A DNA stretch of 64,000 nt from an uncultured Gammaproteobacteria bacterium (GTDB taxonomy: Bacteria; Patescibacteriota; Patescibacteriia; UBA11705): contig CAZQEI010000005.1 in NCBI GenBank assembly GCA_964592195.1, positions 5,689-69,688 of the forward strand. The letters run 5' to 3'. The position numbers and the translations under genes were made by a program. Positions 472 to 47,663 of this stretch are shown piece after piece. The first letter of the stretch is position 1, and every line of letters starts with the position of its first letter. The notes below the pieces were generated by a model. That model made no database searches. It was not told where the DNA came from and was given only the letters and a program-made list of their open reading frames with translations.

Positions 472-594
472 CCCTCTTCTGCGAGCCCCGAAAGTATTGA
501 GGGGCGTGGCAGTCTCAATTGAACTGTTACTTGTATATAATAAATTTTAAAGAGATTGCTTCGTCTCCCCGATTAAATCGGTGATCCTCGCAAA
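472..594. repeat. Composite intergenic repeat family R1, copy a: module tcctcttctgcgagCCCCG...GGGGcgtggcagtctc plus module agagattgcNcgtcNcCCCGATTAAATCGGNgaNcctcgcaaa
   Basis: Near-identical modules recur at 20897-21036, 35531-35660 and 47620-47663. They contain the palindrome cccgattaaatcggg and nested hairpins. Confidence 0.6.
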
Positions 595-732
595 TGAGGT
601 TACTATTTTACTTGCCTGCACAGACAGGAGTAGCTTCCGTCGTGTCATCCGACACGACTGGCATGTCGAATGACATGCCGTAGTTCAGAATTAATTCAAT
701 CTATTCTATCCGTAGAATCCGTAGCCTTGTAA

Positions 733-1047
733 CTAAATCGCAACCCCATATAATCCTGCGATAATCGATGTAATCCTACGGGCTTCGTTCTCCACCAACT
801 CACCCTCATACTCCCCCGAATGCGCAGTCGAACCTTCATAGGAAACTTCTTTTTGGTCAATATGAATGCTGAAATCAAAATGGTCTTCAAACTTTTTAAT
901 ATAAACGTGGAAGCGTGGATAATGACCACTTCCCAGTGAACGCTTATAACTGGTTTCTTTGGTGTGAAAGCTGGTAATTTCACCATAACCACACCGACGA
1001 ATCAAATCTTCCGGGTTATATTCTTTGTATGGAAAACTAAAGTTCAT
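733..1047 (-). CDS. hypothetical protein (104 aa)
   Basis: An ORF with no recognisable motif. The overlapping ORF 696-992 in another frame is probably spurious. Confidence 0.3.
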   Translation of the reverse strand: MNFSFPYKEYNPEDLIRRCGYGEITSFHTKETSYKRSLGSGHYPRFHVYIKKFEDHFDFSIHIDQKEVSYEGSTAHSGEYEGELVENEARRITSIIAGLYGVAI

Positions 1048-1048
1048 A

Positions 1049-3064
1049 TTATTTTATCAATTTTATAAATTCTTTCTCATCAATCACTTTCACTCCAAGC
1101 TTTTGAGCATTGGTTAACTTCGATCCAGGATCTTCGCCTACTACCACATAATCAGTTTTGGAGCTAACTGAGCCGCTAACTTTGCCACCTTGTTTTTTGA
1201 TTAAGGCTTTCGCTTCATCACGAGACATTGTTTCCATAGTTCCGGTTAAAACAAATGTCTTGCCCGAAACTCCAATTTTTTCTTCACGTTTTTCCGGTCG
1301 TTTCAATGTCACTCCCAATTTTTCCAACTTCATCCACAACTCAAAATTCTTTTTATCATGGAAATAATCATAAACCGCTTGCGCCACAGTTTCACCAACA
1401 CCCTCAATTTCATTTAACTCATCAACTTCAGCTGCCTCCATTTTATGCAAAAAGTCTTCAATAGTGCGACCGGTAAAATTTTCAGCCAATAATGAAGCAG
1501 TTTCAGATCCAATATAGCGAATGCCCAGGGCATAGATTAACTTATCCAATCCGACTGTCTTACTTTCACTAATCGCTTGAATCAATTTCTCAGCTGATTT
1601 ATCTCCAAAACGCTCCAAAACCACTAAATCTCCAATAGTTAACGCAAAAATATCCGGGGCATCTTCAATCAGCCCGGTTTCGATCAATTGCTCTACTATT
1701 TTATCACCTAATCCAATAATATTAAAGCCCGATTTTGACACAAAGTGAATAATTTTTTCCCGTTCTTGGGCAAAACAGTTCTTATTAGTACAATAGACCG
1801 CTACTTCACCTACTTTTCGACTAACATTACCTTGGCAAATTGGGCATTGAGTTGGTGCTTTAACAATTTTTTCATTACCGTGACGCATTTTGGGCAATGA
1901 TTCAACGATCTCAGGAATTATATCTCCGGCTTTATGAACAATCACAGTATCACCAATTCTGACATCTTTACGAGTTAATTCATCGATATTATGTAATGTC
2001 GCGCGACTGACAACTGAGCCGGCGATTTTCACTGGACGTAAATGTGCCACTGGAGTCAAGGCGCCAGTTCTCCCTACTTGCCAGACAATGTCTTCGACAA
2101 TGGAAGTAGCTTGCTCAGCTGGGAATTTATAAGCGCAAGCCCAACGAACATATTTCGCGGCTTTACCAAGGCGTTCTTGCCATTCTATATTGTTAACTTT
2201 AACCGCTACGCCATCAATATCATAAGCTAATTTTGGTCGTTTTTCTTGCCAGGCTTCGCAAAACTTGATAGCCGCTTCAATGCCTTTGACTTCTTGGTAT
2301 TCTTCATTTATTTTTAATCCCAACTCTTTCATGCGTTCCAACATGGCCTGTTGAGTTTTTATTTTTGCTGGTGATTTATAAATGGCCCAGCAAAAAACGT
2401 CTAATTCTCTGTCAGCCGTTACTTGAGAATCAAGCTGACGGACAGAACCGGCCGCGGCATTACGCGGGTTAGCGAATAAAGGCTTACCTTCTTTTTCTAA
2501 CTGTTTATTCACTTTATCAAAACTTTTTCTCGGCATGTAAACCTCGCCACCAAATTCAATATCAATATTTTCTCTCAATCGTAGAGGTAAACTTTTAATG
2601 GTTTTAACGGTATGAGTAACATCCTCACCCATCACACCATCACCACGAGTTACAGCGCGTTCAAACAAACCATTTTTATAATGAAAACTCATGTTCAAAC
2701 CATCAATTTTCAATTCACAGGTATAATCAAGTTGTTCATTTTCGTTTAAATTTAAAAATCGCTTCACTCTTTGATCAAACTCGCGCATTTCATCAAAACT
2801 AAAAACATCATCCAAGGAATATTTGGGAATTTCATGTTTTACTTTTTTAAATTTTGCCAACGCGACACCACCCATTCTTTGAGTAGGTGAATCAGCGGTA
2901 ATTAAATCCGGATATTCATTCTCAATCGCCTCCACTTCATCCTTCAAACTATCCCGCGCCGCGTCGCTCATGATGGGATTGTCCAAAACATAATACGCGT
3001 AATCCACCTCACACATTTGGTCTTTTAATTTTTGTAACCGTTTCTTCGCTTCATCTTTTTTCAT
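1049..3064 (-). CDS. ligA: NAD-dependent DNA ligase
   Basis: 671 aa with the adenylation motif [11 protein letters not shown] (KxDG), a Zn-finger [24 protein letters not shown], HhH region and C-terminal BRCT-like tail. Confidence 0.95.
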
Positions 3065-3223
3065 ATCATTATATTCAAAATTACATATTTAAATCATTAT
3101 AAGTGCCTTATTATTTACATCCCCATTTATGGGGGAGTAAAAGTCAACCAACATGGCAAAAGAAAATATTTTTTCAAAGGTTAAAAAGTTCCAACTCCCA
3201 CCTAAAGGTGGATGTAATAATAA

Positions 3224-45750: not shown

Positions 45751-45916
45751 ATGGATGTCTACCCTTCGAGGCTCCTGTTTCACAGGAGGCACCTCAGGGT
45801 GACATTTAAAGTATATTTTAATGTTGTAATTATATCAAATGTATAAAATATAAGCAATTTTCAGCTAATTTTCGTGTTTTTTGATCAATGATCAATGGTC
45901 AATGTTACATGACCAC

Positions 45917-45945
45917 TTGACAAACTTTAAACTATGTGCTATAAT
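45917..45945 (+). promoter_or_regulatory. Consensus sigma70-type promoter TTGACA-17-TATAAT
   Basis: ttgaca (45917-45922), a 17-nt spacer, tataat (45940-45945). It lies directly upstream of the GC-rich non-coding island on the plus strand. Confidence 0.6.
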
Positions 45946-45951
45946 GCTTAG

Positions 45952-47508
45952 TTACATGATCGTTTACAATCAATAGCTCTCGTAGAGTCTTTTGACTCCG
46001 AGATGTCTATAACCAACTCCAAGCCCCCACCGAACTATGCACATTGGAGGTGCCGCAGGAATGCGATCGGGGGCAGATGCAGGGTGGACATGCCAAAGTA
46101 TAGGCTCGTAACAAAAACCGCGAGGAGAGAAGCGGTTTGAGCTGAAGCTGTGGACAACCCCACCCTAATTCGTCAAAACTCTCGCTCGAGCCACAAGGTT
46201 CGCGAGATAATTGACTGCTCCTCGTCAGATGAGCCGCAACCAACGGGACTCATGGCGAGGCACGCGCACGTATCTTGGTATGGAGTAAGCACCGCGGTTG
46301 ACCCTGCTGGTAACAGGGTGGTATATAACCGGCGGAAGCGCTACATAGTACAAGAGGTGCGGTGAAATCGAGCCCGATTCGTCGGGATTTCGATACGAGC
46401 TCCTGGAGCCCCCACCCAACAACACACCTGGAGGTGGCGCGTAATGCGTTTGGGGGCAGACAGCGGGTGAGACAGACTTGTCTCGACCAATTGACTACTC
46501 AAAGAAGTGAAAGATCCTCGACGAGAAAGTCTCACCCAAAGTCGTCGATTTCTCTACCGCAAGGTGGAGATCGAAGATACGCTGACTCGGACGATCGCGG
46601 TCCTGTGGCCCTCCCGCCCCTCTGCTGGTGGCAGAGATGGACAATCGTTCGAGCGTACCCCGGCCCTAAGCTCGGCTAACCCTGCGCCTCGCGGTGCACG
46701 GTCAAGCAGCTTCCGTGGCAGTCCTCACGAGGCTCGTTCGGTCGCTCGCTGGAGTCCTCTTCAGGATAAACCAGCCCGCCGCGACTGCGCCCCAGACTTC
46801 CGTCTGTCGGGGCTTACGCCTGTGGGGTTCGCACGCCACGCGAGGTGTCCGGGGATGCGAAGTTGATCGTTCTGCGAAAGTGGAACGTCGACATAGATCA
46901 CCACGCAACTCTCCCAGCAAATCCAGGGAGACTACCCGCCTTGAGTCTTTTGGGCCACGTGTGGACGAGTTAAATCGTCCTGTACAAGCCTCAGTTCGAA
47001 ACTGGCTCTAAGGCGGGCACGAAATTGACCACTCTTCGGAGTGTGTTGATACAGATCATCCGAGGGCTCGCAGCTCACACCCACTCGATGTGGGAGTCAG
47101 CTCTGAGCTCGTCAACGTGAGCACCAACGTCACTGGCGGTTCTTATCCGTCCAGAATCTGGTCAGCCTGAAGTACAAGGGCTGGTTGGAGGAGGGGTTCA
47201 CGGTGATGTCCATGGTGTCCGAACAATCGGACTGACCATATCAGAACGCCACCCATCGTCGCATGCGCAACGATTCATCGAACTCGGACATCCGAGACAC
47301 AGCATGACGCGACGATCGGGCGTTGATCCCCAGTTCACATCTGGTTCAGGCCGCAAACAAAAGCGACTGACCGATAAGCTGGGGACACGAATTCAGCCTT
47401 TGCTGATGGACAAGATGACTTCGGTCGTCGCGTTCTCGCAAAGTGTTGATAGATCTCAAGCTCCGACGTTGAACACCTCACGGTGAACAACGTCGGAGCA
47501 CTTTTTTT
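45952..47508 (+). ncRNA. Candidate large (about 1.55 kb) GC-rich structured non-coding RNA of unknown class, or a non-coding foreign insertion
   Basis: There is an abrupt shift to GC-rich sequence with no frame free of stops. The short ORFs are Arg/Pro/Ser-rich in all six frames. It is bounded by a consensus promoter and an intrinsic terminator, and carries an internal ~65-nt repeat (46024-46090 and 46409-46476). Confidence 0.45.
47461..47508 (+). terminator. Rho-independent terminator
   Basis: An 11-bp stem ctccgacgttg/caacgtcggag with an inner sub-hairpin cacc-tcac-ggtg, followed by cacTTTTTTTaTTT. Confidence 0.7.
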
Positions 47509-47619
47509 ATTTGGTAAGTTGGCCTGCCTGCGTAAGGCAGGTAATTGGTAAAAAAGTAAATTGGTACATGGAATATTAAAAAAACGAGCAAAATGCTCGA
47601 ATTTTTATTATTATTTTAT

Positions 47620-47663
47620 TAGAGATTGCCACGTCGTCCCGATTAATCGGGACTCCTCGCAAA
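47620..47663. repeat. Intergenic repeat family R1, copy d (core module only)
   Basis: agagattgccacgtcgtcccgattaatcgggactcctcgcaaa. Confidence 0.6.

Follow-up and report, generated by a model that had tools for sequence, protein, structure and literature searches.

Dispersed bipartite hairpin repeats beside a GIY-YIG nuclease gene in a Patescibacteria genome segment: a probable divergent class of Ssn-related motifs

A 64-kb stretch of contig CAZQEI010000005.1 (the window) was analyzed for R1, a family of dispersed hairpin repeats, and for a neighboring gene that encodes a small GIY-YIG protein related to the single-stranded DNA (ssDNA) nuclease SsnA of Neisseria. The window contains eight R1 units of 35-47 nt each in four intergenic loci. 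All of them fit the consensus GAGAYTGC-NNCG-(variable GC hairpin)-CTCGCARA-WKAG. A preliminary description had recognized four composite copies made of two modules. The four loci were recovered, while the composite copies were resolved into eight units and the two modules proved to be one kind of unit, read from opposite strands and differing in the central hairpin. A head-to-head doublet is found at each of loci a (474-598) and c (35543-35662); the two doublets are not copies of one composite, and their spacers of about 35 nt are mutually unrelated. Locus b (20898-21034), formerly read as one copy carrying the core twice in inverted orientation, consists of three units, and locus d (47622-47667) of one. 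The units and the ssn-like gene are given below in window coordinates.

474-516, minus strand: unit 1, left arm of doublet a; the minus strand reads GAGACTGCCACG-CCCCTCAATACTTTCGGGG-CTCGCAGAAGAG and as ssDNA folds into an outer CTGC/GCAG helix and an inner GC stem
552-598, plus strand: unit 2, right arm of doublet a, GAGATTGCTTCGTC-TCCCCGATTAAATCGGTGA-TCCTCGCAAATGAG; a non-conserved 35-nt spacer (517-551) separates it from unit 1
20898-20934, plus strand: unit 3, tail-to-tail with unit 4, GAGATTGCCACG-CCCCGATGCGGGG-CTCGCAAATTAG
20939-20973, minus strand: unit 4, a minimal unit, GAGATTGCTTCGTC-GTTTCAC-TCCTCGCAAAAGAG, in which GTTTCAC replaces the long inner hairpin
20988-21034, minus strand: unit 5, which holds CCCGATTAAATCGGG and begins 6 nt past the end of the ssn-like gene (stop codon) and shares its strand
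21041-21340, minus strand: ssn-like gene, a predicted 99-aa single-domain GIY-YIG nuclease (Pfam PF01541, E 2.2e-14, sole domain)
35543-35581, minus strand: unit 6, left arm of doublet c, GAGACTGCCACG-TCCCGCTTTGCGGGA-CTCGCAGAAGAG; fold z -3.15
35616-35662, plus strand: unit 7, right arm of doublet c, GAGATTGCCGCGTC-GTCCCGATTGAATCGTGAC-TCCTCGCAAAATAG; the 34-nt spacer is unrelated to that of doublet a
47622-47667, plus strand: unit 8, a solo unit, GAGATTGCCACGTC-GTCCCGATTAATCGGGAC-TCCTCGCAAAATAG, between the stop codon of the open reading frame (ORF) 47675-48166 and a terminator at 47585-47599; fold z -3.0

The occurrence of these repeats at the places first described was verified to be far beyond chance. 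The pattern GAGAYTGCNNCG-N(5-35)-CTCGCARA yielded eight matches, compared to none in 100 dinucleotide-preserving shuffles, and the 30-nt core of the preliminary description yielded four matches with none expected. A fuzzy scan of the 64-kb window that allowed up to three substitutions returned the same eight units and no extra copies, and all occurrences of GAGAYTGC and CTCGCARAWKAG in the 64 kb are located inside these units. The palindrome named in the preliminary description, CCCGATTAAATCGGG, is present in its exact form only once (21005-21019, unit 5), while three other units contain variants with one or two changes or a 1-nt deletion. The copies had also been described as lying immediately downstream of minus-strand genes. 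This position is uninformative, as every gene of the window is located on the minus strand, but it does hold that all eight units fall into the 12.5% of the window without ORF coverage. The orientation of the units relative to transcription is 4:4, and the flanking sequence differs from copy to copy.

Each unit can adopt a two-tier hairpin, in which a 4-bp outer YTGC/GCAR helix surrounds a variable inner stem-loop. The pyrimidine at position 5 of the head is always matched by a purine in the tail: units with C have G there, and units with T have A. Covariation was analyzed for one named two-helix structure in an alignment of 17 units, which combined the window units with those of two Ignavibacteria loci, one Lentimicrobiaceae locus and one Bacteroidales locus. 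Pairing was observed in 87.8% of the cells, compared to 70.4 +/- 2.1% in shuffles (0/500), and dropped to 30-43% once the partner columns were slid. The outer helix was 100% paired and its variable pair was UA in 11 units and CG in 6 units, with no mismatch, while 8 of the 10 inner pairs showed compensatory changes on both sides. Folding as ssDNA identified the two-tier hairpin as the minimum-energy structure of five of the eight units. Doublets a and c also fold well as whole inverted repeats (z -2.2 and -3.3).

The preliminary description had mentioned the GIY-YIG ORF at locus b only as a neighboring gene; it was found to be the key to the repeat family. SsnA of Neisseria is a 94-aa single-domain GIY-YIG protein (CDD cd10448), which binds ssDNA, cleaves it immediately upstream of the NTS repeat (CGTCATTCCCGCGMAVGCGGGAATCYRG, a repeat that comprises dRS3) and is inactive on double-stranded DNA, RNA and the reverse strand (Chenal et al. 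2025, Nat Commun 16:2388, PMC11893778). Ssn homologs across phyla are typically flanked by hairpin repeats of 20-50 nt, termed Ssn-related motifs (SRM) (PMC11893778). The window ORF and the 94-aa SsnA ORF of N. gonorrhoeae are 38% identical (pairwise E 2e-22), and a tblastn search of PLSDB with the window protein retrieved gonococcal chromosomes with an E-value of 4e-13 at 91% coverage, below the limit of E < 1e-10 that Chenal et al. applied to Ssn homologs. The GIY/YIG tyrosines as well as Arg, His and Glu residues are conserved in the alignment of the ssn-like ORF and its homologs. NCBIfam contained no specific model for this ORF, and a sequence search of the PDB returned only a distant UPF0213 structure (E 0.23). 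The family of Ssn-like proteins comprises 2,112 clusters at 50% identity (E <= 1e-10). The start codon of the ssn-like gene follows the upstream gene (21350-22165) after 9 nt, and three units are found within 145 nt downstream of the gene, while the other five are distributed over the three further intergenic loci.

The two gonococcal entries in PLSDB, NZ_CP119140.1 (L110) and NZ_CP119142.1, are complete chromosomes of 2.17 Mb that were filed as plasmids and are scarcely annotated. The reference SsnA/NTS locus was taken from NZ_CP119140.1, and its 94-aa SsnA ORF is directly followed by the canonical NTS CCCGTCATTCCCGCTCAGGCGGGAATCC.

The association between gene and repeat was evaluated for 80 metagenomic loci that encode relatives of the ssn-like ORF, 78 of which were scored downstream and 76 upstream. 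A unit of the form GTC-N5...N5'-C was present within 150 nt downstream in 60 of the 78 loci, compared to 3.6 expected from shuffles, and 46 of these 60 units had the GAG..GAC orientation seen in the window. The unit (GATYSY) directly abuts the stop codon in 26 loci, and this codon is often the TGA of TGAGATTGC. Upstream, 51 of 76 loci contained a unit within 180 nt, and 39 of these units were inverted. The upstream and downstream units form an inverted bracket around the ssn relatives that resembles an insertion sequence (IS). The recurrent downstream architecture in the relatives is (T)GAGATTGC-[TT/CA]CG-hairpin-CTCGCAATGAC. In a cross-locus test whose anchors left the stem arms unconstrained, 24 units carried fully complementary variant stems, compared to a mean of 9.7 (maximum 20) after the arms were re-dealt (0/2000). 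These stems belong to seven types, ATTAC/GTAAT, ACTGC/GCAGT, ATCGC/GCGAT, ATTCT/AGAAT, ATGGC/GCCAT, ACCGC/GCGGT and GTTGC/GCAAC.

Individual loci illustrate this coupling. A scan of a genome collection with the unit pattern returned 28 loci, against a rough chance estimate of about 30 matches; about 24 of them were chance singletons in coding-like DNA, and only L013, L017, L018 and L022 were real loci. An IMG/VR scan with the same pattern gave no matches. In L017 (Ignavibacteria), a 95-aa GIY-YIG ORF adjoins an array of at least 12 units, with 3 nt between its stop codon and the degenerate head GAGATTGCTC, and in L022 (Bacteroidales) a 94-aa GIY-YIG ORF is followed by two units. The units of both loci share the conserved GAGAYTGC...CTCGCARA flanks, and their GIY-YIG proteins and that of the window are clear homologs. 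L013 is syntenic with L022 and lacks the ssn gene but has kept a doublet; several units differ as well, and clean insertion junctions were not obtained from this comparison. The closest relatives of the window protein (L113, L115 and L116, 62-67% identical) are accompanied by intermediate unit variants on both sides. The units around a Planktothrix homolog (54.5% identical) read GTC-ATTCT-GAGTGAAACGA-AGAAT-CTC and GAG-ATCCT...AGGAT-GAC and form a bridge between the NTS type and the window type, and an Azospirillum homolog is flanked by GTCATCCCCGCGAAGGCGGGGATCC dimers.

Two side observations concern these loci. The segments L022 5170-6300 and L013 4440-4990, both of Bacteroidales-type loci, contain heterodimer doublets. 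The two arms of such a doublet differ in their covarying outer stems (CTGC/GCAG in one, CCGC/GCGG in the other) and terminate in AGTAGTC, which makes them another subtype of unit. Furthermore, gene callers translate the units. The GIY-YIG protein P0172 ends in ...WDCFAPVGRSQ, a C-terminal extension read from a unit, and the ORFs called at 341-1533 in the L017 array are spurious and rich in LLRAKRSNL and EIASS motifs. Database peptides of these kinds are likely artefacts of this repeat family.

The extent of the association bears on the idea that the units are bound by some other factor of the host, such as a nucleoid protein or gyrase, and that the GIY-YIG gene is a coincidental neighbor. Enterobacterial repetitive extragenic palindromic (REP) sequences and the bacterial interspersed mosaic elements (BIMEs) that contain them bind IHF and gyrase, and only one of the four window loci adjoins the GIY-YIG gene. 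Coincidence is nevertheless difficult to reconcile with adjacency in that many independent metagenomic loci, or with its recurrence in Neisseria, Azospirillum and Planktothrix, each with its own repeat variants, and this explanation is considered very improbable.

An RNA-level role was weighed against the same data. The units could be terminators, 3'-end stabilizers, processing sites or small RNA genes, and two of these possibilities, terminators and small regulatory RNAs, had been raised in the preliminary description. All units are located in 3' untranslated or intergenic positions of co-oriented genes and form stable hairpins, and REPs of other bacteria stabilize mRNA 3' ends. The 4:4 orientation, on the other hand, means that in half of the units a transcript would carry the complementary sequence. 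A terminator scan at loci b and d called none of their four units, no unit has a T-run after its sequence, and a separate canonical terminator (47585-47599) is present just beyond unit 8; the terminator proposal was thus not supported. The proposal of a small regulatory RNA fared no better, as even permissive E-values brought up no Rfam match for locus b or d. At the gathering threshold, the only one at which loci a and c were searched, the whole window contained a single tRNA match; nothing relevant was detected at E <= 10 for locus b (20850-21400) and L017, nor at E <= 1 around locus d. The tie to a DNA nuclease gene, including the stop-codon overlap, holds across phyla, the linked enzyme family acts on ssDNA and not on RNA, and SsnA does not bind RNA (PMC11893778). 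An RNA-level function as the main role is therefore judged to be improbable, while the units may still exert a secondary, passive effect on mRNA stability.

The host and the turnover of the repeats were assessed from the remaining genes. The window encodes GatC, an NAD-dependent ligase (LigA), TatD, translin and RsmI, and the best matches of LigA and RsmI are found in Patescibacteria (Parcubacteria/Falkowbacteria-like). By this gene content, the window is a segment of a Patescibacteria chromosome. A phage origin, at which the one-strand gene order and the GC content of 37.7% might hint, was ruled out by gatC, ligA, TatD, rsmI and translin with their Patescibacteria best matches, and a megablast search of the window against phages found nothing. 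Cyanobacterial SDR or Nezha-type elements were likewise set aside as candidates, given the host and the partner gene. In the relative L029, whose LigA is 82% identical, the gap between the orthologous 104-aa ORF and gatC is 44 bp long and free of units, whereas the same intergenic region of the window spans 285 bp and holds doublet a. This difference indicates that repeats were either gained in the window or lost in L029. Together with the differing flanks and the presence of the same architecture in Ignavibacteria, Bacteroidales and many metagenomic contigs, it also argues against a local segmental duplication confined to the window, the outcome that the preliminary description had named as fatal to a mobile or regulatory family.

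Such differences raise the question of mobility. The units had been compared to miniature inverted-repeat transposable elements (MITEs), and in this reading the doublets of about 125 nt would be non-autonomous IS derivatives moved by a DDE transposase that recognizes terminal inverted repeats (TIRs). Doublets a and c are indeed long imperfect inverted repeats of MITE-like length with good folds, and the repeats are dispersed in intergenic DNA. Their spacers, however, are unrelated, solo and triple arrangements occur, no target-site duplication (TSD) was seen at the unit borders, and the partner that is conserved across lineages is a GIY-YIG gene and not a transposase. Scans with Pfam, PHROGs or NCBIfam covered 23 of the approximately 65 window ORFs, so that a transposase could be encoded elsewhere in the window or genome. 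What stands of the earlier comparison is a small, structured and dispersed intergenic family of the REP or miniature type; a classical MITE, for which TIRs with TSDs and related spacers are missing, is very unlikely.

A different form of mobility would assign the active part to the nuclease gene itself. The unit-ssn-unit arrangement could be an autonomous ssDNA transposon of a new, GIY-YIG-based enzymatic class, analogous to a REPtron or IS200/IS605, and the solo and doublet units could be its non-autonomous progeny, still turning over in a streamlined Patescibacteria genome. The inverted bracket, with a GTC-oriented unit upstream and a GAG..GAC unit overlapping the stop codon downstream, fits this scenario. 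The differences in presence or absence between relatives fit it as well, and so does the large number of short contigs with an ssn gene, which break off within 1-2 kb, although none of these is proof of transposition. All three features are compatible with mobility, and an autonomous transposon is regarded as a minority possibility, rather unlikely.

The reading that was favored is that the R1 units probably represent a divergent, bipartite class of SRM and that ORF 21041-21340(-) encodes their cognate Ssn-type ssDNA nuclease. It is carried by the anatomy of the repeats, their covariation, the homology of the ORF to SsnA and the association of gene and repeat across many lineages, while ssDNA binding, cleavage, strand choice and a biological role would be expected by analogy, from the Neisseria literature together with homology.

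Several observations weigh against this assignment. The published SRM string, HGTCWYN(0-2)YYVSBRHN(0-5)WNVSBRGN(0-2)RNCYNB, had no match in the window, L017, L013, L022 and L111 and in none of the 80 metagenomic loci, while the positive controls gave seven matches in the N. gonorrhoeae locus and four in the Azospirillum locus. In Neisseria, cleavage depends on the three bases 5' of the NTS palindrome and binding on the C directly 3' of it (PMC11893778). On the NTS-equivalent strand, the common relatives have the form GTC-ATTGC-GAG(G)-(inner hairpin, minimally GCGAAGC)-(GA)CGA-AGCAAT-C. They have kept the GTC and C tags, while their stem is split by an internal loop, which is conserved, and an inner hairpin, which varies. 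In the window subtype, CCT-M-W-T-Y-TGC-GAG...GCAAT/GCAGT-CTC, the closing pair is mismatched. This subtype retains GCAAT/GCAGT-C but lacks the GTC that matters for cleavage in Neisseria, and before TGCGAG it has CCT-M-W-T-Y instead of CGTCAT, two nt off the register. All eight units close the outer helix with A.A (T.T on the opposite strand), the minimum-energy folds of units 2 and 5 leave out the 4-bp outer helix, and unit 4 has no significant fold by itself (z +0.95). The two-helix structure tested for covariation came from the same 17 sequences. Units are present only on the 3' side of the window gene and none on its 5' side, and the gene-proximal unit has the opposite orientation to those of Neisseria and Azospirillum. 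Finally, an identity of 38% is no guarantee of an equal activity.

Under the favored assignment to a bipartite SRM class, the following course of events is proposed. In the ssDNA state, as on the lagging-strand template, in incoming transforming or conjugative DNA or in repair gaps, a unit would fold as a two-tier hairpin. Specificity would reside in the short outer YTGC/GCAR helix and the conserved unpaired flanks, which leaves the distal inner stem-loop free to vary. The nuclease would bind the base of the hairpin on one strand only, CCTCTTTTGCGAG...GAAGCAATCTC, equivalent to the CGTC...C strand of NTS, and might then nick the ssDNA a few nt 5' of the hairpin (CCTCTTTTGCGAG...GCAATCTC). Ssn controls the recombination or uptake of motif-bearing ssDNA in Neisseria, and its role outside this genus is unknown (PMC11893778). 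The outcome in the window host could be a similar control of recombination or uptake, or a spread of the repeats themselves in the manner of REPs and REP-associated tyrosine transposases (RAYTs).

Should this assignment be correct, a repeat family that is otherwise annotated as anonymous hairpins or spurious small ORFs obtains a cause and a likely mechanism, and the Ssn/SRM system extends to small-genome Patescibacteria. A large clade of Ssn homologs would be paired with a bipartite hairpin class that is invisible to the published motif. As that motif misses this class, the reported Ssn-repeat association of 71% (PMC11893778) probably underestimates the coupling. Natural pairs of enzyme and site, with a constant base and a free inner hairpin, might also be of use for the ssDNA-cutting tools proposed in the Ssn paper. 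The inverted bracket sharpens the question of whether Ssn is a nuclease that has been domesticated or one that drives a mobile element.

Further features of the window were recorded independently of the R1 family. An ORF-free block of about 1.6 kb (approximately 45,960-47,525) has a GC content of 51-68% in 100-nt steps, within a window of 37.7% GC. It is located on the plus strand, antisense to every window gene, and upstream of rsmI. The block is bordered by a 12/12 sigma-70 promoter with TG extension (TTGACA-17-TGnTATAAT, 45917-45945) and by terminator hairpins at approximately 47,470-47,525 and at 47585-47599. Its sense strand folds with z -3.3 to -7.7, compared to about +1 to -1 for the flanking coding DNA. 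Rfam contained no match for the block, reassigning stop codons opened no long ORF in it, and blastn against plasmids returned nothing. At the syntenic site upstream of rsmI, this architecture recurs together with promoters of equal strength in three Patescibacteria relatives (L117 1260-2459(-), L120 2440-3500(-) and L121 2327-3500(-)), whose block bodies could not be aligned by blastn except for the promoter, the 5' leader and one hairpin motif. The plus-strand segment at approximately 45,960-47,525 looks like a large structured Patescibacteria RNA that has not been described and is noted here as a candidate.

Other repeats are also present in the window. A second family consists of five copies of the 20-nt palindrome CCTGCCTGCCGGCAGGCAGG (9776-9800, 14298-14322, 24445-24469, 29132-29156 and 45045-45069). 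CGTAG follows the copies at 29132 and 45045, and TACG abuts the copy at 14298 on the other side. By these tags, the family belongs with the GTAG-tagged, REP-like elements to which RAYT transposases are linked. Intergenic heptamer-like arrays (ATTCGTAG, GATTCGT and CATGGAA types) occur in both orientations and resemble the short tandem heptamer repeats of cyanobacteria, while the GC-rich double hairpins CCCCGAAGGGGCCCCTTTGGGG and CCGCCTGAGGCGGATCCGCCTTTGGCGGAG are paired as inverted copies about 48-50 kb apart and constitute one more type of intergenic repeat. Paralogous genes in tandem arrays (families D1-D6 and D10-D14) were observed as well, one of which (38704-43361) contains five ORFs of about 300 aa that are 66-91% identical over a 110-nt segment. 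The positions of these features are as follows.

23268-23308, 33155-33205, 44968-45011, 52416-52560 and 62048-62089, also 35440-35470 and 690-720: heptamer-like arrays
3927-3952 / 53542-53567 and 5153-5186 / 53245-53278: GC-rich double hairpins
38704-43361, 3961-9640, 24696-26968 and 54998-59344: tandem paralogous gene arrays

Comparison with known systems places the R1 family as follows. Like MITEs, the repeats are small, intergenic and arranged as inverted-repeat doublets; unlike MITEs, they have no signature of TIRs with TSDs, no parental IS and unrelated doublet spacers. With REP/BIME, REPIN and RAYT systems they share a dispersed hairpin repeat with one associated nuclease gene flanked by repeats, the recognition of ssDNA hairpins, which is presumed here, and inverted doublets as a common unit. 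The enzyme, in contrast, is of the GIY-YIG type and not an HUH/Y1 transposase of the IS200/IS605 type, R1 lacks the GTAG tag, and Ssn is not known to carry out strand transfer or transposition. CGTC-tagged REPs (CGTC-1 to -4) were defined without a dedicated transposase (Di Nocera et al. 2013, PMC3733652). They likewise occur mostly as head-to-head intergenic dimers without an associated tyrosine transposase, and the common relatives of the window units read CGTC-ATTGC...GCAAT-C. CGTC REPs have a CGTC/TGTC/CCTC tag, a continuous 8-9 bp stem starting with AT, a loop of 4-5 nt and a CCA tail, whereas the window units have a 4-bp outer stem with a mismatched closing pair, a second inner hairpin, the tail CTC(T) and a CCT that is out of register.

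The Ssn/SRM system has been known since 2025, and both the bipartite hairpin class and the host lie beyond its description. The class is outside the published motif, and the host is a Patescibacterium, while the main text of the paper names neither Patescibacteria, Bacteroidota nor Cyanobacteria. The NTS hairpin is a continuous 8-bp stem, unlike the bipartite hairpin, in which the outer helix of 4-5 bp and the variable inner hairpin are separated by the conserved internal loop GAG(G) / (GA)CGAA. As in the published system, the window contains a single-domain GIY-YIG homolog of SsnA of about 95 aa, and oriented hairpin repeats of 20-50 nt adjoin the gene and are dispersed intergenically as well, often as inverted dimers. 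The NTS-ssnA-NTS layout of Neisseria likewise resembles an IS, and the identity of the NTS loop is dispensable, with activity kept after its deletion or extension (PMC11893778). The constant hairpin base and flanks and the free distal part of R1 are in line with this property, and a dispensable loop would explain why the inner hairpins vary within one genome while the base and flanks remain constant.

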